From Patescibacteria group bacterium (lineage in GTDB: Bacteria; Patescibacteriota; Microgenomatia; UBA1406): DNA of 64,000 nucleotides. The stretch covers positions 293,629-357,628 of the forward strand of contig JBAYJK010000001.1 of NCBI GenBank assembly GCA_041665145.1, written 5' to 3'. The position numbers and the translations under genes were made by a program. A model generated the notes under the pieces. That model was not told the DNA's origin. It saw only the letters and a program-made list of their open reading frames with translations, and did no database searches. Positions 35,121 through 61,018 of this stretch are shown piece by piece; within the stretch, counting starts at the first letter, position 1; the number at the start of each line of letters is the position of its first letter.

Positions 35121-35621
35121 ATGCTGTATAAATTAAAAGAATTGCTGTATCAATTCATCATGTGCGGGTATTTTCGTATTCACCGGACATACCTGGGCTT
35201 ATTCGTGAAAAAGATGGGTAAAAACGTTGAAATTTGGAGGTCGGTGCACTTTATGGATCCGAAAAATATTTCCATCGGTGATAATGTCATGTTGGCGAGA
35301 AACGTCGATCTTTACGGATTCGGAGGTTTGGAAATCGGAAACCACACGGCAATCGGAGCATATTCCGCCATTATTACCCATAATCATATATTTACGGATA
35401 ACAACAAACCTATTCTGGAACAGGGTCATAAGAGGGAAAAAGTAACCATCGGCACAGATGTGTGGATCGGCACCCATGCCATAATTCTTCCGGGAGTGAC
35501 CATCGGTAATGGGGCTGTTATCGGGGCGGGGGCGGTCGTCACAAAAGACGTGCCGAAATACGCGGTGGTTGTTGGAAACCCAGGGAAGATTGTGAAATAC
35601 AGAAATTCAAAAATCAAATAA
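35121..35621 (+). CDS. hexapeptide-repeat (LbH) acetyltransferase
   Basis: [31 protein letters not shown]...[51 protein letters not shown]. Confidence 0.8.
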
Positions 35622-35724
35622 CAACCCTCAAATCAAATTCAAAGTTCAAATGACAACCTTCAAAAGGTTTTGAATTTTAGATTTGGAATTTGATTTGTCA
35701 TTTGTAGATTTGAATTTTGAATTT
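35602..35724. repeat. AT-rich inverted-repeat hairpin element, gene-less form (copy A)
   Basis: The left arm is GAAATTCAAAAATCAAATAACAA... and the right arm is ...TGATTTGTCATTTGTAGATTTGAATTTTGAATTT. The element overlaps the stop codon of the upstream gene. Confidence 0.85.
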
Positions 35725-35746
35725 GTGAATGTACTAGAATGTTAGT

Positions 35747-35965
35747 ATGTACCTTCTATCACTCTTTCCTATAAAACTCAGCATTCATCAATTAGTGCTT
35801 ATCACCAACTCCATAGTTTTAATCGGCCTTTTGATTGCCGTGGAACTGTGGTCGACAAATGACACCCATAAAGACAAAGCGAAATATTACTACCCGCTGA
35901 TTATGTTGTTTATATTCCTCATGATGTATGCCGGATATGTACAGTTTGCAACACCCAACCTATGA
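35747..35965 (+). CDS. small membrane protein
   Basis: 72 aa with two hydrophobic helices. TAGAAT lies 6 nt upstream of the ATG, and the stop overlaps the next start as ATGA. Confidence 0.4.
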   Translation: MYLLSLFPIKLSIHQLVLITNSIVLIGLLIAVELWSTNDTHKDKAKYYYPLIMLFIFLMMYAGYVQFATPNL

Positions 35966-36705
35966 GTAACTTACGTAAAAACCAAATTTTCATTGCACTT
36001 GCCGCCATTCTTATACTCGCATCACGCATGATCTCTTTTTATTCCCAGGACTACGGGTATCTGGTAAATACAACGCTCTTTGTCGTGTTTGTGTTGTTAA
36101 GCATGTACCGGAAAGATTTACAGAGAGTGCTTATATTACTCTCGGTTATTCCTGCCGCCACAGTTTTCACCATTTCTCTTCCCGTTCCGGCTATTTTCCA
36201 AACACTTCTTTTTTACGCCGCCATATTCCTGACAGGTTTGATTTACTGGTATTTTTTTGAGGAGCAAAAAAAAGTAACCGTATTGCGCTCCGTCACCGCC
36301 AAGCAACTGGTTGTGGGTGTCATCGCCGGGCAAGCGCTCGGGATCGCAAGTTATGTGTTGCTTCCCAAAGTGTATTGGCCGCAGGAGCTCATGACTGCCG
36401 GGCGCATAACTGTTCCCCTGGTTTTTCTTATTTTTATATTGCTTGCAATAACCGAAGAATTGTACTTTCGCCGTTTATTGCAGAAGGAGGTGGGGGAAGT
36501 GGTGAACCCGCATAATGCGCTCGCACTTTCGGCGTGGCTCTACGCATCCCTTGCCGGATCTTTGGGTTTCGGCGTCACATTCTTAGCGCTTGTTGCGGGA
36601 ATCACAATGGCACTCTTGTATTCGGAGAACAAATCGACACTCCAAACGGTCATAGTAAATATCACTATGAAGCTTGTTTTTCTTGCCGCTATCTTCCTTA
36701 TGTGA
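35962..36705 (+). CDS. CPBP-family (CAAX protease-like) intramembrane protease
   Basis: Polytopic protein with the ITEELYFRRLLQ motif (EExxxR), diagnostic of the CPBP/Rce1-like family. Confidence 0.7.
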   Translation: MSNLRKNQIFIALAAILILASRMISFYSQDYGYLVNTTLFVVFVLLSMYRKDLQRVLILLSVIPAATVFTISLPVPAIFQTLLFYAAIFLTGLIYWYFFEEQKKVTVLRSVTAKQLVVGVIAGQALGIASYVLLPKVYWPQELMTAGRITVPLVFLIFILLAITEELYFRRLLQKEVGEVVNPHNALALSAWLYASLAGSLGFGVTFLALVAGITMALLYSENKSTLQTVIVNITMKLVFLAAIFLM

Positions 36706-36749
36706 TTATGATCATTGTGTTGTGAAGAGTAATGATGTATATTGACATC

Positions 36750-37193
36750 ATGAAATCCCGTTTAGCAGGTTTTATTGCCCTGTTTTTATGCCTTTCATTG
36801 TTGATGGTTCCTGCTGTTTTGGCAAATAACCCAGGAGTAACCAGAGTTAGGGGAAATGTCTATGATCAAGACAACGGGGGAGCGGGAATCGGTGGTCTCA
36901 CCGTCAACGTAACTTGCAACGGAAATTCACGAAACGCCACAACTGACGGCAACGGATTATATGTGGTCGACTATACCCGTTCGGAATGCCCGCAGTTTGG
37001 ACCGGTCAGTTCTGCCGTTTCGCACAACGGACAATCCCAGTCTGACACGGTATATGTATCCGACGTGTATACTGCTACGATGGACTTTTACTTCGGGACG
37101 ATAAGCGTTCCGGAATTCGGCATGATCCCGGGAGCGATTGCGGCAATTGGATCAATTGGAACATACCTGGCACTTAGGAGAAAGAGAACCTAA
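36750..37193 (+). CDS. small secreted protein with a C-terminal VPEFG-TM-RRKR sorting signal (PEF/PEFG-CTERM-like)
   Basis: Signal peptide MKSRLAGFIALFLCLSLLMVPAVLA. A carboxypeptidase-regulatory-like beta domain (RGNVYDQDN...GLTVNVTCNGNSRNATTDGNGLY). The C-terminus is ISVPEFGMIPGAIAAIGSIGTYLALRRKRT. The start is trimmed from the ORF-track 36732, with TATATT 6 nt upstream. Confidence 0.65.
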   Translation: MKSRLAGFIALFLCLSLLMVPAVLANNPGVTRVRGNVYDQDNGGAGIGGLTVNVTCNGNSRNATTDGNGLYVVDYTRSECPQFGPVSSAVSHNGQSQSDTVYVSDVYTATMDFYFGTISVPEFGMIPGAIAAIGSIGTYLALRRKRT

Positions 37194-37315
37194 ATTCAAA
37201 GCTCAAATCTACAACCTTCAAATCAAATTCAAAATTCAAATGATAACCTTCAAAAAGTTTTGAATTTTAGATTTTGAATTTGATTTGTCATTTGTCTATT
37301 TGAATTTTGAATTTT
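37192..37315. repeat. AT-rich inverted-repeat hairpin element, gene-less form (copy B)
   Basis: AAATTCAAAGCTCAAATCTACAA...TGATTTGTCATTTGTCTATTTGAATTTTGAATTT. It starts inside the upstream stop codon. Confidence 0.85.
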
Positions 37316-37340
37316 ACTCATCTGCGCCTATAATACCTCT

Positions 37341-38288
37341 ATGCCTTTATTAAAGCGCTTACTCTTATTTTCTGCGCTGTTTATTGTCCTCTCCGGCCTT
37401 GTGGGTCCGTGGGTGATCAGCACCAAGCTTCTCTACGGTTTCTATTTCTTTATCTACCCGAACATGGGGAAGTTACTCATGTTTTCGTTTATCGTGTTTG
37501 TACTTCTTACAAAAGACAAGTTGAATTCAATCGGTGTCATCCCCGCGAAGGCGGGGATCCAGGAGCATCTGGATTCCCGGTCACGTATGCCGGGAATGAC
37601 AGTATCAACTATTCTTTGTTTTCTTTCCTTCGTTCTTTTGATTCCCTTCTACGTATTCGGAAACATGTTGCTCAAAGAACCTTCATTTTTCACCAATCTT
37701 CCTCTTTCTCTCTTTGTTCATTTCCTGTTAATTTCTTCTGTTTTGACTTTATTTGTTTCGGTTTTCGGATTTCGATATTCGATTTTTTTTGCAAAGCAGT
37801 TTAAACGTGAACTAGTTGTCTGTTGCCTGTTGTCTGTTATCTACTATTTCGCGATTTTTTACGTATGGCATTTCTGGCCCCTACTTTCTGACGCAGTTTT
37901 GCAGTCGGTAAAATTCCTGTTCTCCCTATCATATAAAGACGTTATGTTTATTCCTCCACGTGCATTGTACGTTCACAACTTTACGGTGAGTATTGAAGAA
38001 GCCTGTTCGGGCCTCGACAGCATGTTCTTGTTTACGACGCTGTACATACTTATTGGGATTGTTGAACGGAAAACATTCAACATTGCTAAATTGTTGCTAT
38101 TGCTACCCGTAGCGCTTGTCGGCTTATTTCTTGTGAATGTTCTGCGCGTGTATACGCTTATTCTCGTCGGTGTGCTCATAGATCCGAAGCTGACCGTACA
38201 ACTCTTTCACACGTACCTTGGTATGGTTCTCTTCATGGTCTACTTTGCCTTATTTTGGAAAATCTTTTACGGATGGATGAGGAAGTAG
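37341..38288 (+). CDS. exosortase/archaeosortase-family transpeptidase
   Basis: Polytopic protein with the family Cys/Arg/His signature blocks: SIEEACSGLDSMF, LVNVLRVYTLIL and FHTYLGMVLF. It carries an in-frame GC-rich repeat insertion (see findings). Confidence 0.7.
   Translation: MPLLKRLLLFSALFIVLSGLVGPWVISTKLLYGFYFFIYPNMGKLLMFSFIVFVLLTKDKLNSIGVIPAKAGIQEHLDSRSRMPGMTVSTILCFLSFVLLIPFYVFGNMLLKEPSFFTNLPLSLFVHFLLISSVLTLFVSVFGFRYSIFFAKQFKRELVVCCLLSVIYYFAIFYVWHFWPLLSDAVLQSVKFLFSLSYKDVMFIPPRALYVHNFTVSIEEACSGLDSMFLFTTLYILIGIVERKTFNIAKLLLLLPVALVGLFLVNVLRVYTLILVGVLIDPKLTVQLFHTYLGMVLFMVYFALFWKIFYGWMRK
37536..37601. repeat. GC-rich triple-hairpin palindromic element (copy 1), in frame inside the exosortase CDS
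   Basis: GTCAT-CCCCGCGAAGGCGGGG-ATCCAGGAGCATCTGGAT-TCCCGGTCACGTATGCCGGGA-ATGAC, translated as VIPAKAGIQEHLDSRSRMPGMT. Confidence 0.8.
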
Positions 38289-38290
38289 GC

Positions 38291-38397
38291 AAAATTCAAA
38301 GCTCCAATAACAACCTTCAAGTCAAATTCAAAATTCAAATTTTAAACATTTAGATTTTGAATTTGATTTGTCATTTGTCTATTTGAATTTTGAATTT
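38291..38397. repeat. AT-rich inverted-repeat hairpin element, gene-less form (copy C)
   Basis: AAAATTCAAAGCTCCAATAACAA...TGATTTGTCATTTGTCTATTTGAATTTTGAATTT. It begins 3 nt after the exosortase stop. Confidence 0.85.
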
Positions 38398-38412
38398 ATT
38401 TTTCAATTCGGA

Positions 38413-38441
38413 TTGACACAAATTTTATCTTAATGTATACT
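38413..38441 (+). promoter_or_regulatory. sigma70-type promoter TTGACA-N17-TATACT
   Basis: TTGACA at 38413-38418 and TATACT at 38436-38441. GTG 38448 follows after 6 nt, which suggests a leaderless transcript. Confidence 0.55.
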
Positions 38442-38447
38442 ACTTTT

Positions 38448-38912
38448 GTGCAGAATATCACAAAAAAACTAACATTTTCAGCTCTTGTTACTCTTATCCT
38501 CTTTAGCTTAGTGTTAATTCCACAGGCATCGGCACAACCGGCACCCGTTGAACAAACAATTGTAAACGGCCAGGTGAAAGACGGAGCAAACAATCCTGTT
38601 TCCGGAGCATCGGTACAGACAAATTGTAATGGTAATGTGCGAAACACATCAACAAACGGAGACGGTAAATATCAAACGGTCTACACCGGGACGGAATGTC
38701 CGGTTAACACCGTTGTTACCGCTCAAGCTACAGCCGGCAGCCAAAGCGGCGGTGGCAGTGGTCAGGTACAAGAGGTGATTAACACCGGTACCGTGATCAT
38801 CAACGTTGCTCTCATCAATATAGCTGTTCCAGAATTCGGACTCATGACCGGAGCAGTCGCTGCCGTCGGATCATTGGCAGTATTCTTGAAAATGCGAAAG
38901 AAAACAGTCTAG
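38448..38912 (+). CDS. small secreted protein with a C-terminal VPEFG-TM-RKK sorting signal (paralog of 36750..37193)
   Basis: Signal peptide (M)QNITKKLTFSALVTLILFSLVLIPQASA. The same CNGN...ECP domain layout as the paralog. The C-terminus is IAVPEFGLMTGAVAAVGSLAVFLKMRKKTV. The ORF-track start 38433 lies inside the -10 box, so GTG 38448 is preferred. Confidence 0.6.
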   Translation: MQNITKKLTFSALVTLILFSLVLIPQASAQPAPVEQTIVNGQVKDGANNPVSGASVQTNCNGNVRNTSTNGDGKYQTVYTGTECPVNTVVTAQATAGSQSGGGSGQVQEVINTGTVIINVALINIAVPEFGLMTGAVAAVGSLAVFLKMRKKTV

Positions 38913-38917
38913 GTGCA

Positions 38918-39394
38918 GAAATTCAAAGATCAAATCTACAACCCTCAATTGAAATTCAAATGACAACCTTCAATTGAAATCTAAAATTCAAAATACAAAG
39001 AATTATTTCTTGTTAATGGCGCCGAATATGAGAGAGAGTTCTTTGGCTTCCTGAAGGAGCCTAGTAATTAAAGCACGTTGTGTTTCATCTGCAAACTCGA
39101 TCATTCGCAACCAATGGATAGTTTCCTTCGCCTCTTTTTTGCAAATACCAATCTTTGCATGGAAATCTTTTTTGGAGTCGGCACCGTTGGCTTCCATATA
39201 GTTGGCTCCGACACTTGTTGCAGATCTTATTATTTGCGAGATTAGTGGAACAGTAATTATTGTTTTTCTGATGCTGTTGCACAACGAAATTATTTGAGTG
39301 CCAAATAGGGTAGTTCGCACCTCAAGGTCGTATATTTTTTCTCCATTTGAATTTTGAATTTGATTTGTCATTTGTAGATTTGAAGGTTGAATTT
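38918..39394. repeat. 477-bp inverted-repeat-bounded unit enclosing a four-helix-bundle gene (long form, copy 1)
   Basis: 85-nt left arm, a minus-strand ORF at 39003..39371, and a 23-nt right arm. The termini are AAATTCAAAGATCAAATCTACAA on the left and, as reverse complement, AAATTCAACCTTCAAATCTACAA on the right. Confidence 0.75.
39003..39371 (-). CDS. four-helix-bundle protein (23S rRNA intervening-sequence protein family)
   Basis: 122 aa with LISQIIRSATSVGANYMEANGADSKKDFHAKIGICKKEAKETIHWLRMI, which matches the TIGR02436/PF05635-type pattern (R.A.S...N..EA......DF..K...A.KE..ET..WL). Confidence 0.8.
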   Translation of the reverse strand: MTNQIQNSNGEKIYDLEVRTTLFGTQIISLCNSIRKTIITVPLISQIIRSATSVGANYMEANGADSKKDFHAKIGICKKEAKETIHWLRMIEFADETQRALITRLLQEAKELSLIFGAINKK

Positions 39395-39470
39395 ATTATC
39401 CACCTCATGTTTATCAAATACCACGGTTTATAGGCATCATCTACGCCCAAAGTACTGTATAATGTATCAC

Positions 39471-50873: not shown

Positions 50874-50989
50874 AAATTCAAAGCTCAAATGACAACCTTC
50901 AATTGAAATTCAAAATTCAAGCTTCAAAATAGTTTTGAATTTTAGATTTTGAATTTGATTTGTCATTTGTATATTTGATTTTTGAATTT
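50874..50989. repeat. AT-rich inverted-repeat hairpin element, gene-less form (copy F; coordinates +/-2)
   Basis: AAATTCAAAGCTCAAATGACAACCTTCAATTGAAATTCAAAATTCAAGC...TGATTTGTCATTTGTATATTTGATTTTTGAATTT. It abuts the stop codon of 50990..51445. Confidence 0.8.
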
Positions 50990-59460: not shown

Positions 59461-59744
59461 AAATTCAAAATTCAAATGACAACCCTCAAGTGAAATTCAA
59501 AATTCGAATCTACAACCCTCAATTCAAATTCAAAGCTCAAACATCATTCCCGCACAAGTGATGTCATTCCCGCGTAGGCGGGAATCCAGGAACTTTGTAT
59601 CTGGATCCCCGGTATTTGTATTCCGGGGATGACAAACATATCTAGATTGCCGCGCTTCATCCCGCTGAGCGGGACTTCGCTCGCAATGACGCCTTTTGAA
59701 TTTTGAATTTGATTTGTCATTTGTCTATTTGAATTTTGAGTTTT
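59461..59744. repeat. composite repeat: AT-rich hairpin element (copy J) with nested GC-rich elements (59541..59693)
   Basis: The arms are AAATTCAAAATTCAAATGACAACCCTCAAG... and ...TTTTGAATTTTGAATTTGATTTGTCATTTGTCTATTTGAATTTTGAGTTTT. The centre holds a triple-hairpin copy at 59563..59633 plus a second GC-rich palindrome (TTGCCGCGCTTCATCCCGCTGAGCGGGACTTCGCTCGCAATGAC). Confidence 0.8.
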
Positions 59745-59767
59745 ACCTGTCCTGGTATAATACCCAC

Positions 59768-61018
59768 ATGCGCAAAACCGTCGTGATTTTTTTTCTCTGT
59801 ATCGTTCTTGCTGTTTCCTATGTGGTCACTCACGTGTTTCGTGCCTACAGTGTCGAGGGGGGAAAAACCCGACTGTTCCCCATACAATCCATAGATACTA
59901 TGAAATATTCGCGGGATATTGCGCGGGAGAAATTACATGATGCCTCGTTCGACAAACATATAGATACACAAGTTAAAAACATCGCCGCAACCGGGGCAAC
60001 GCACATTGCTATCGCAACTCCATATGACGAAGAGTTTATTCCGTTTTTGACCCGTTGGGTCAGGGCTGCGAGGAAATACAACCTGAATGTATGGTTCAGG
60101 GGTAATTTTTCCGGATGGGAAGAATGGTTTGATTACCCGGAAATCACGAAAGATGAACATATCCGAAAAACAAAAGCATTCATCGCACGGCACGCAGATA
60201 TGTTTGTTGACAACGACTTATTCAGCGCGTGTCCCGAATGCGAAAATGGGGCGCTTGGTGATCCGCGACAGACAGGGCGGCTTGCAGAGTATCGGCAATT
60301 TCTGATTGATGAGTACCAGGTAACAACCGAGGCGTTCAACCGGATCGGGAAGCGCGTGCAATCAAACATCCTGTCAATGAACGGCGATGTTGCCCGACTG
60401 GTTATGGATAGGGAAACGACCCGCGAACTCGGAGGAATGGTGACGATCGACCATTATGTCGAAACACCGGAACAATTGGTGGGGGACGCGGAGCGAATTG
60501 CAGGTAACAGCGGAGGACTGGTAATGCTCGGCGAATTCGGGACACCGATTCCCGATATCCATGGTGAGTTGACTGAAGATCAACAGGCGATGTGGGTGGG
60601 AGCGGGACTGTATGGATTGGCAAAATCCAAAAGCATTGCCGGAGTTAATTATTGGACCAACAAAGGGAGCAGTACGGCGCTGTGGAATGACGACGATACC
60701 CCGCGCGCGGTTGTTTCGACCATCACCGATTTTTACAAACCGCTTGTTATCCGGGGAACGGTGCGTGACGAACTCGGTTTCTTGCTTTCGGATGTAACGG
60801 TGACCTCCCCATTTGAAACAGTACATACGAAGACCGGGGCGTACAGAGTTTTCTTTATCACCGGCGATCACATAGAATTCCAGAAGCCGGGATACATAAA
60901 CGTAAGCGAATCTCTGCGGCGTACGGATGTGCGTGACTTGGTATTGGATGTAACGATGCAGCCCACTAACCCCTCATTACTCTATAAGATATTATTGCCG
61001 ATATTACGTAGAAAGTAG
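59768..61018 (+). CDS. membrane-anchored TIM-barrel glycosidase-like protein with a C-terminal carboxypeptidase-regulatory-like domain (tentative)
   Basis: The start is trimmed to ATG 59768 (MRKTVVIFFLCIVLAVSYVV), with TGGTATAAT 6 nt upstream. CPECENG and MLGEFG are possible clan-A catalytic Glu blocks. The C-terminus is IRGTVRDELGFLLSDVTVTS...TGAYRVF. Confidence 0.4.
   Translation: MRKTVVIFFLCIVLAVSYVVTHVFRAYSVEGGKTRLFPIQSIDTMKYSRDIAREKLHDASFDKHIDTQVKNIAATGATHIAIATPYDEEFIPFLTRWVRAARKYNLNVWFRGNFSGWEEWFDYPEITKDEHIRKTKAFIARHADMFVDNDLFSACPECENGALGDPRQTGRLAEYRQFLIDEYQVTTEAFNRIGKRVQSNILSMNGDVARLVMDRETTRELGGMVTIDHYVETPEQLVGDAERIAGNSGGLVMLGEFGTPIPDIHGELTEDQQAMWVGAGLYGLAKSKSIAGVNYWTNKGSSTALWNDDDTPRAVVSTITDFYKPLVIRGTVRDELGFLLSDVTVTSPFETVHTKTGAYRVFFITGDHIEFQKPGYINVSESLRRTDVRDLVLDVTMQPTNPSLLYKILLPILRRK

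Follow-up and report, generated by a model that had tools for sequence, protein, structure and literature searches.

A probable exosortase-type protein-sorting cassette with VPEFG-tailed substrates in a glycan locus of a Patescibacteria bacterium

INTRODUCTION

XrtE (exosortase E/protease, TIGR04162) is a natural fusion of an exosortase with a CPBP-type protein, about 516-550 amino acids (aa) long, that is served by VPEID-CTERM substrates. PEFG-CTERM proteins are known in ammonia-oxidising archaea. Exosortases of the XrtA/EpsH type sit in exopolysaccharide loci and are paired with a P-E-x motif that abuts a hydrophobic helix, and the putative catalytic triad of the whole family is made up of a Cys, an Arg, and a His (Haft 2023, 10.1101/2023.06.07.544157). 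The archaeosortase ArtA of Haloferax volcanii serves here as the mechanistic template because it is the sole family member for which experiments support helix removal and lipid attachment (Haft 2023, 10.1101/2023.06.07.544157; PMC11980579). MrtJ and its JDVT-CTERM protein form a minimal adjacent enzyme-substrate pair (PMC11980579). Here, we describe a small exosortase-type cassette from a metagenome-assembled genome (MAG) of a Patescibacteria group bacterium (GCA_041665145.1, contig JBAYJK010000001.1, positions 293,629 to 357,628). The window, as used below, is this entire stretch of 64,000 nucleotides (nt), and all coordinates without another source refer to it.

The Patescibacteria, or candidate phyla radiation (CPR), make up a large share of bacterial diversity and are mostly ultrasmall epibionts, in which surface molecules decide host attachment. 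To our knowledge, very little is known about how CPR bacteria display proteins at their surface. A full-text literature search found nothing that joins exosortases or archaeosortases with Patescibacteria or Saccharibacteria, and the sole co-mention of exosortase and candidate phyla radiation that it returned was work on hot-spring viruses, published as a paper and its preprint.

RESULTS AND DISCUSSION

A five-gene cassette conserved across Patescibacteria

Five co-directional open reading frames (ORFs), all uninterrupted, fill positions 35747-38912 of the window. They probably constitute a dedicated exosortase-type C-terminal protein-sorting cassette of this CPR bacterium. Family membership of the enzyme, its conserved triad, the tripartite signal, the reciprocal gene linkage, the substrate fold, and the linkage to glycan loci are established below. 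The five genes are as follows.

35747..35965, + strand: ORF72, a small hydrophobic/membrane protein of 72 aa (ORF call; no curated family match)
35962..36705, + strand: CPBP/Rce1-like polytopic membrane protein, 247 aa (PF02517; EELYFRR at 36454-36474)
36732..37193, + strand: substrate A, 153 aa, or 147 aa from Met7 at nt 36750 (VPEFG at 37107-37121; tail ending in RRKRT)
37341..38288, + strand: exosortase-family enzyme, 315 aa (TIGR04178, PF09721; Cys222/Arg269/His290)
38433..38912, + strand: substrate B, 159 aa, paralogue of A (VPEFG at 38826-38840; tail ending in MRKKTV)

ORF72, which was absent from a preliminary description of this DNA, is translationally coupled to the CPBP gene; its stop and the CPBP start overlap as ATGA, and the CPBP gene is separated from substrate A by 26 nt. 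The motifs and both tail strings quoted in that description were all recovered exactly and in place. Homologue loci occur in Microgenomates, WWE3, and Saccharimonadia, which rules out a cassette unique to the source genome and makes it a conserved module kept across the Patescibacteria.

The enzyme is an exosortase-family member with an invariant triad

The polytopic protein that had been singled out for its exosortase-like Cys, Arg, and His blocks passed the models of the family, with 56.9 bits against TIGR04178 (cutoff, 23) and 50.8 bits against PF09721 (Exosortase_EpsH; cutoff, 25.7). Searching 5.8 billion proteins brought up about 75 relatives (40-52% identity), of which nearly all have 300-315 aa. 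One database entry, named 'archaeosortase/exosortase family protein [Patescibacteria group bacterium]', matches the enzyme at 100% identity. The triad is invariant in an alignment of 21 sequences at 36-54% identity: Cys222 (EEACSGLD; codon at 38004-38006), Arg269 (VNVLRVY; 38145-38147), and His290 (LFHTYLGM; 38208-38210). Two checks that had been proposed for this protein, family hidden Markov models and the catalytic Cys in an alignment, thus both came out in its favor.

None of the curated subfamily models in NCBIfam was passed by the window enzyme, which scored 53 bits against XrtE (cutoff, 150) and 42 bits against ArtC (cutoff, 100), followed by XrtV, EpsH (TIGR02602; 32.8 bits, cutoff 105.6), and XrtA (27.8 bits, cutoff 208); the ArtA model gave no match at E < 1. 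The same pattern ran through the family (n = 21), every member of which matched the exosortase/archaeosortase superfamily: XrtE was the best subfamily in 21/21 (down to E = 6e-19), with none at cutoff, XrtV and EpsH also matched 21/21, and ArtC touched five. Because all members score best on bacterial models and only 5/21 touch ArtC, the sequences make the enzyme look like a bacterial, Xrt-like exosortase rather than an archaeosortase.

The AlphaFold2 (AF2) model of the enzyme has a predicted local distance difference test score (pLDDT) of 86.7 and is helical throughout, with helices at residues 2-27, 38-64, 90-111, 120-142, 144-153, 155-195, 223-241, 248-279, 282-289, and 293-314. The model thereby predicts a polytopic, membrane-embedded protein with the roughly eight or more helices looked for in such an enzyme. 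Foldseek found no significant match to this model in the PDB.

A constant C-terminal tail on diverse cargo

Both substrates end, as had been described, in a tripartite tail made up of VPEFG, a hydrophobic helix, and a basic cluster, and VPEFG abuts the hydrophobic stretch directly, without a spacer. A six-frame scan of the 64-kb window found only two tripartite PE[FILVMWY][GSAT] tails, both flanking the sortase gene; the earlier claim of only two tiny substrates holds within the window, which is the scope of that count. Among the substrate homologues of related loci, 56 of 59 carry [VI]PE[FLYM]G followed by a Gly/Ala-rich helix of about 20 aa and a basic cluster. Microgenomates-type loci are almost uniformly VPEFG and Saccharimonadia loci, with sortases 31-36% identical to the query, use [VI]PE[FLMY]G, so that the motif tracks the enzyme clade.

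The tail alone, as a 32-column profile, was searched exhaustively against 1.84 billion representative proteins (E <= 1e-3), this search being used in place of a word-indexed one, which had returned only 4 short fragments. It gave 143 protein clusters, 119 with VPEFG and 13 with IPEFG. In almost all of them the match reaches the extreme C terminus; the Pro precedes that end by 24-36 residues (median, 27). Nearly all of the proteins are small, with a median length of 144 aa. In about half, the body shows no relation to the beta-sandwich of substrates A and B (see below); these are either short proteins (90-120 aa) in which a Cys-containing segment precedes the motif or low-complexity/Pro-rich proteins. 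This constant tail on unrelated cargo argues that it is a sorting signal. Isolated tails found no CTERM match in NCBIfam, a weak negative given that short hydrophobic queries are hard for hmmscan.

In nine of 16 Saccharimonadia tails (loci L029-L041), an N-V-S sequon stands directly before [VI]PE[FLMY]G, as in IVNVSLVPELG. This could be only the last beta-strand of the domain or a glycosylation site beside the putative cleavage site.

Enzyme and tail genes are reciprocally linked

An enzyme-seeded survey combined 37 loci from a genome collection with three from exact look-ups into 38 non-redundant loci, 28 of them fully flanked, in which 6 kb on either side was searched. Tail ORFs were present in 32 of the 38 and in 25 of the 28 with full flanks, at 1-4 per locus. 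None of the 49 was more than 1.21 kb away from the sortase gene, and the median gap was 68 bp. A tail-seeded survey, in which a degenerate DNA pattern for VPEFGLI[PT]G was sought in metagenome contigs, gave 25 loci. True C-terminal tails were found in 19 of these, and in 15 of the 19 the locus also encoded a sortase homologue (E <= 7e-42); the chance hits without tail architecture had one in 0/6. Exceptions to the linkage include L014, which has masked bases upstream, and L055, a 1.3-kb contig. VPEFG-type tails, which the preliminary description had proposed to look for on other proteins, do therefore recur, and mostly next to the enzyme. The pairing extends to non-sandwich cargo: P0112, a low-complexity protein of 118 aa, is encoded directly upstream of a gene for a 306-aa EpsH protein.

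These data bear on whether the tails might be ordinary C-terminal membrane anchors that lie near an exosortase by coincidence. Such anchors would fit tails that no curated CTERM model recognises, yet V-P-E-F-G stays invariant while the remaining protein diverges or is unrelated, the motif keeps a fixed distance from the C terminus in 143 clusters, and the gene linkage is reciprocal, with the chance pattern hits as its negative control. We rejected this explanation, which the tail-only profile and the enzyme-seeded and tail-seeded linkage effectively refute and which we hold to be extremely improbable.

Locus L003, from a Microgenomates genome, also carries a classical sortase gene (PF04203; 115-1164, - strand) about 5 kb from the exosortase homologue. 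Since both enzymes are present in it, a single CPR cell can have LPXTG-type sorting alongside VPEFG-type sorting.

The substrates are small two-cysteine beta-sandwich proteins

The two substrates are paralogous to each other, with 35% identity and a phmmer E of ~1e-21, and each consists of a signal peptide, a two-Cys domain of about 80 residues, VPEFG, a Gly/Ala-rich helix of about 20 residues, and a basic cluster. The preliminary description of two paralogous small secreted proteins with a signal peptide and a CNGN...ECP pair was borne out; the pair (C62/C86 in A, C65/C89 in B) is invariant in 19 homologues. The V126-P-E-F-G130 motif (A numbering) likewise does not vary among 19 full-length homologues, although identity between their bodies falls as low as 33%. 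Substrate A is on record as a hypothetical protein, with the NCBI start at Met7 (36750).

The structure prediction that had been suggested for the substrate domain was run on A. AF2 gave a model with pLDDT 87.3 consisting of an eight-strand beta-sandwich (strands within 36-121) and a C-terminal helix (131-152), and Foldseek matched it to transthyretin-like, carboxypeptidase-regulatory-like, and CnaB-like sandwiches. Matches to PF13620 were weak and below the gathering score on both substrates but agree with the Foldseek result. Big_1 was below the gathering score on B, and the anammox Kustd1514 S-layer glycoprotein family was weakly matched in 6/19 homologues.

A split, His-less CPBP-like protein and its 72-aa partner

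The CPBP-like protein scored 36.1 bits against PF02517 (gathering score, 22.4) and has the EExxxR motif 1. Its earlier naming as a CPBP intramembrane protease with an EELYFRR motif therefore stands as to family and motif and is doubtful as to protease, both canonical catalytic His residues being missing. In an alignment of the clade (13 sequences), the invariant positions are E165, F169, Q174, N233, and K237, with E166, R170, and T229 close to invariant, and no conserved His occurs at motif 2 (FxxxH) or motif 3 (HxxxN), the two His residues that are critical in Rce1 and MrtX (PMC11980579). When aligned by hhalign with the CPBP domain of the canonical XrtE-like exosortase-CPBP fusion P0077 (EELAFRG, LFGLLH, HAVTN), the clade has Ala at the motif-2 His and N233/K237 on HxxxN; an alternative register places T229/N233 there, the alignment probability is low (11%), and neither register restores a conserved His. 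Searches of PDB sequences with the protein and the clade profile found no Rce1 structure, and the comparison of catalytic residues accordingly draws on this low-probability alignment and on conservation within the clade. From these sequences, the clade may be a pseudo-protease or a mechanistically altered CPBP.

The gene is present in 14 of the 28 fully flanked sortase loci and in 1/15 tail-seeded loci with a sortase. CPBP clade homologues were collected from 14 loci, and an ORF72 homologue precedes wherever it is detectable. It directly adjoins the CPBP gene on the upstream side in 13 loci, with Microgenomates and Saccharimonadia both represented. The locus order is ORF72, CPBP, substrate(s), sortase, with the ORF72-CPBP pair always upstream of the substrates and on the same strand. 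Because only half of the sortase loci and 1/15 of the tail-seeded sortase loci have it, the pair is optional, possibly a non-catalytic accessory module.

Against this, the CPBP-like protein, with ORF72, might be the actual or an obligatory second tail-processing enzyme, as in the myxosortases or XrtE, with the exosortase doing only part of the job. In its favor, the nearest curated relatives of the clade within NCBIfam are sorting-type CPBPs (MrtS for 11 of 13 members, Mrt_core for 7, MrtJ for 5), the best subfamily for the sortase is XrtE, a natural exosortase-CPBP fusion (exemplified by P0077, which has both Pfam domains), and the position of the ORF72-CPBP pair is the same in two deep CPR lineages. 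All Mrt matches are, however, far below cutoff, the window protein reaching 16.4 bits against Mrt_core (NF040914; cutoff, 100) and at most 19.5 bits, against MrtS (NF040589; cutoff, 130). The clade lacks the critical His residues, myxosortase signals have an invariant Cys in the motif whereas tails of the beta-sandwich class have none, and a pair found in 14/28 and 1/15 of sortase loci cannot be obligatory. We consider this an improbable account and keep the exosortase as the predicted tail-processing enzyme.

The clade homologues lie in L011, L012, L029-L033, L035-L038, and L040, and its Saccharimonadia members have a long Lys-rich N-terminal extension.

Glycan context

The neighbors of the cassette in the window encode a PMT_2 GT-C glycosyltransferase, two hexapeptide acyltransferases, a Wzx flippase, and a GT2 glycosyltransferase. 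In 17 of the 38 loci, from both lineages (Microgenomates and Saccharimonadia), the sortase has a homologue of the window flippase within 6 kb, and the homologue loci are likewise glycan loci. The glycan locus noticed earlier around the cassette is thus real, and this placement is a conserved property.

Proposed mechanism and points that weigh against it

By analogy with the described systems, both small proteins would be exported by Sec through their N-terminal signal peptides and, outside the cell, would fold into a disulfide-capable transthyretin-like beta-sandwich. The C-terminal helix would tether each substrate, with the basic cluster in the cytoplasm. The polytopic sortase would recognise VPEFG where it abuts the helix and cut there, at the membrane surface, by means of Cys222/Arg269/His290. 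The new C terminus would then be passed to an acceptor rather than to water, as with sortase A and ArtA, and the protein would become anchored at the cell surface; the most plausible acceptor may be a membrane lipid or a glycan or lipid-linked intermediate of the surrounding locus. As an optional accessory module, the CPBP-like protein and ORF72 might handle the tail or leftover helix or act as a non-catalytic recognition subunit.

The main mechanistic alternative to anchoring is plain hydrolytic release, in which the enzyme is an ordinary endopeptidase that clips off the helix and frees the small beta-sandwich proteins into the medium or wall, for secretion or maturation. One-step transpeptidation is undemonstrated for any exosortase or archaeosortase (Haft 2023, 10.1101/2023.06.07.544157), and cargoes that are tiny and single-domain or low-complexity could serve as soluble factors. 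The Cys/Arg/His triad is nevertheless the arrangement of a sortase-type transpeptidase (Haft 2023, 10.1101/2023.06.07.544157), the conserved place beside a Wzx flippase suggests an envelope-linked acceptor, and a dedicated C-terminal system would be needless for release alone, given signal peptidase. On balance, release seems unlikely, though a possibility to be taken seriously, and we favor anchoring by the sorting cassette.

Several points weigh against that interpretation. We infer by analogy that VPEFG is the cleavage site, that transpeptidation follows, what the acceptor may be, and what CPBP/ORF72 might do. The enzyme and the tails fall outside all curated subfamily and signal models, so that their specificity is deduced from co-occurrence alone. 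The substrate count covers the 64-kb window rather than the genome. Three fully flanked loci (L018, L020, and L023) have the sortase directly followed by the flippase, with no adjacent tail ORF, and three tail-bearing loci (L060, L062, and L069; GC content, 26-30%) have no sortase within the retrieved flanks. Lastly, the window sortase bears a 16-residue mobile-element insertion, which its model would allow in a putatively active enzyme (see below).

The L060, L062, and L069 loci encode a distinct Cys-rich cargo of about 150 aa with IVPEFGLITG tails (L060, 11674-12135; L069, 3706-4167; L062, 3728-4174). One neighbor in this group is a weak match to the archaeal recombinase XerA (48.5 bits versus 220), and an NCBIfam scan of the neighbors gave no match deciding between an archaeal and another host. 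These loci may belong to another lineage or system.

Palindromic elements and the insertion in the sortase gene

Two kinds of palindromic element accompany the cassette.

35600..35727, no strand assigned: AT-rich hairpin element of about 125 nt, upstream of ORF72 (RNA fold, -38.7 kcal/mol; z = -5.7)
37191..37316, no strand assigned: AT-rich hairpin element in the gap between substrate A and sortase (RNA fold, -36 kcal/mol; z = -7.9)
38292..38398, no strand assigned: AT-rich hairpin element in the gap between sortase and substrate B (RNA fold, -31.4 kcal/mol; z = -8.2)
37536..37601, + strand: GC-rich 66-nt three-stem palindromic element inside the sortase gene, encoding the loop IPAKAGIQEHLDSRSRMPGMT

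The 66-nt element encodes 16 extra residues of the window sortase that are missing from 20/20 aligned homologues. Its RNA fold has -37.9 kcal/mol (z = -4.6), and a second GC-rich copy is intergenic (59562-59635). Where the copies diverge, paired substitutions leave the stems intact (CCCCGCG/CGGGG versus UCCCGCG/CGGGA, and UUCCCGG/CCGGGAA versus CCCCGG/CCGGGG). The element, of 66-76 nt with a three-stem junction, is of the type whose translation gives 'IPAKAGIQ...GMT'-like peptides. The preliminary description had the enzyme carrying an insertion of the hairpin repeat; there is an insertion, but of this different GC-rich element.

The insertion and the dense hairpins raise the question of whether the cassette is decaying in its source genome, the insertion having inactivated the sortase and the hairpins marking a degenerating region. 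The insertion is indeed unique among the 21 aligned homologues, and four of the nine AT-rich arm copies of the window fall within the 3.7-kb cassette stretch. It is, however, in frame and without a stop codon, and in the AF2 model it occupies a variable loop between helices 2 and 3, where residues 68-81 are disordered and the sole part with pLDDT < 50, the rest of the fold staying confident. The catalytic and near-invariant residues of the sortase are all intact, both substrates keep their signal peptide, Cys pair, and tail, and the five ORFs are uninterrupted. Decay is therefore a quite remote prospect, and the model gives no reason to call the insertion-bearing, predicted sortase dead.

The RNA folds of the three full AT-rich palindromes are far more stable than those of shuffled sequences (z = -5.7 to -8.2), and half copies lie beside them at 38916-39000 and 39334-39395. 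Their arm, TTGAATTTGATTTGTCATTTGT, has nine copies in the window at up to 3 mismatches, all on the + strand, with none before 35 kb and with those outside the cassette at 50949, 53710, 55745, 59703, and 62748; each copy sits just upstream of a gene start. The AT-rich element behaves like a miniature inverted-repeat transposable element or a repetitive extragenic palindrome-like element and may carry expression signals. Hairpin repeats do not separate every gene, as had been stated, and instead bracket three units: ORF72-CPBP-substrate A, sortase, and substrate B.

A promoter-like TTGAAT-16-TATAAT (37307-37334), its -35 box contributed by the last arm of the 37191-37316 hairpin, ends 7 nt before the sortase ATG, and this sequence suggests a sortase transcript that is leaderless or has a very short leader. 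The best sigma-70-like site in the region, TTGACA-17-TATACT (38413-38441; 11/12), overlaps the annotated ATG of substrate B (38433), for which reason translation may begin at an in-frame GTG (38448), or the mRNA may lack a leader. Because promoter-like sites are not enriched over shuffles (13 versus 9 +/- 3), we make no claim on expression signals.

Beyond the cassette, a 23S_rRNA_IVP (four-helix-bundle) gene (39003-39371, - strand) starts inside a repeat arm, MTNQIQNSN being encoded by ATGACAAATCAAATTCAAAATTCAAAT; repeat and gene start may be evolutionarily connected. The ORF at 59696-61018 (+ strand) probably has its true start downstream, since its first residues are repeat-encoded (MNFEFDLSFVYLNFEF).

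Host labels of homologue loci

One complete set of CPBP, substrate (VLVPEFG tail), and sortase, L027 (contig CAYWEK010000019.1, 4458-6885), comes from a MAG labelled 'Candidatus Woesearchaeota archaeon'. Either this is mis-binning or a label error, or the system is common to CPR bacteria and DPANN archaea; a Pfam scan of the neighboring genes gave no match deciding between an archaeal and a bacterial host. Many of the MAG records L007-L016, L021, L022, L025, L040, and L042 are titled 'uncultured Gammaproteobacteria bacterium', and others among them 'Candidatus Acidiferrales', 'Weeksellaceae', or 'Verrucomicrobiia'. On records with a clearly CPR-type cassette, such titles look like placeholder or erroneous taxonomic labels.

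Significance

The broadest reading of these data is that of a minimal Patescibacteria surface-display pathway, in which an exosortase clade of its own couples 1-4 tiny VPEFG cargoes to a lipid or exported glycan, the His-less CPBP and ORF72 form a new recognition or recycling module, and the system is maybe shared with DPANN archaea. As a whole, we advance it only tentatively and think it rather unlikely to hold in full. If true, it would offer the simplest system for finding the long-unknown acceptor of bacterial exosortases, as it comes down to one enzyme with adjacent small substrates. One enzyme of about 300 aa, with 1-4 adjacent substrates of about 100-150 aa and a linked flippase, is an attractive model for that question, and the family occurs in Saccharimonadia, a CPR lineage with cultured strains. 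Because curated models miss the tag, database records list the substrates as 'hypothetical protein' and give the enzyme no more than a generic name; with models built for the enzyme clade and for the VPEFG-CTERM tail, the annotation of thousands of CPR genomes would improve.

Comparison with known systems

The exosortase paradigm predicts subfamilies of this kind, and NCBI already labels the enzyme generically. What is new is a distinct exosortase subfamily with its own signal, a split and His-less CPBP with a 72-aa partner, and tiny dedicated cargo, in a phylum without prior description of such a system. The wide occurrence of the signal among CPR bacteria and the minimal make-up of the cassette are new as well, and they bring the acceptor question within experimental reach.

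XrtE comes nearest. It is the best subfamily for 21/21 members, its signal also starts with V-P-E, and in both systems the exosortase is associated with a CPBP-type protein. The CPR sortase nevertheless reaches only 53 bits of the 150 required and is a 315-aa protein with the EpsH domain alone and no fused CPBP; the true fusion P0077 (550 aa) is 25% identical to it over 45% of the query. The CPR CPBP is instead a separate, optional, His-less gene product with a 72-aa partner, the motif is VPEFG rather than VPEID, and the host is a monoderm-like CPR bacterium.

Like the myxosortases (MrtX, MrtS, and MrtJ), which are CPBP membrane proteins for C-terminal signals and include the nearest curated kin of the cassette CPBP, the VPEFG system deals with C-terminal tails, but its constant tail partner is the exosortase and not the CPBP, VPEFG has no invariant Cys, and the His residues are missing. 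A classical LPXTG signal is a poor fit as well: VPEFG has no spacer before the helix, and the sortase/LPXTG model TIGR01167 matched 1/19 substrates, at E = 0.66.

The archaeal signals PEFG-CTERM (TIGR04296) and PEF-CTERM/ArtC (TIGR03762) resemble the CPR tails in having a P-E-F(-G) core ahead of a helix and basic residues, whereas the VPEFG system comes from a Patescibacteria MAG. The likeness to archaeal PEF/PEFG signals that had been pointed out stands for the motif and does not extend to recognition by the curated model, since the thaumarchaeal TIGR04296 matched 1/19 full-length substrates, at E = 8.5. The similarity thus appears to be at the motif level only, and it could be convergence. 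With ArtA and PGF-CTERM, the cassette has in common the superfamily, the Cys/Arg/His triad, and the motif-helix-basic logic of the signal, and ArtA substrates are surface (glyco)proteins; ArtA differs in being archaeal, in its PGF motif, in its large, scattered S-layer substrates, and in its prenyl/archaeal lipid acceptor.

With XrtA/EpsH and PEP-CTERM, finally, the cassette shares an enzyme embedded in a polysaccharide locus and a motif that abuts the helix, and the EpsH models match weakly. XrtA typically serves many substrates genome-wide in bacteria with an outer membrane, whereas the VPEFG system has 1-4 tiny substrates encoded next to the enzyme.

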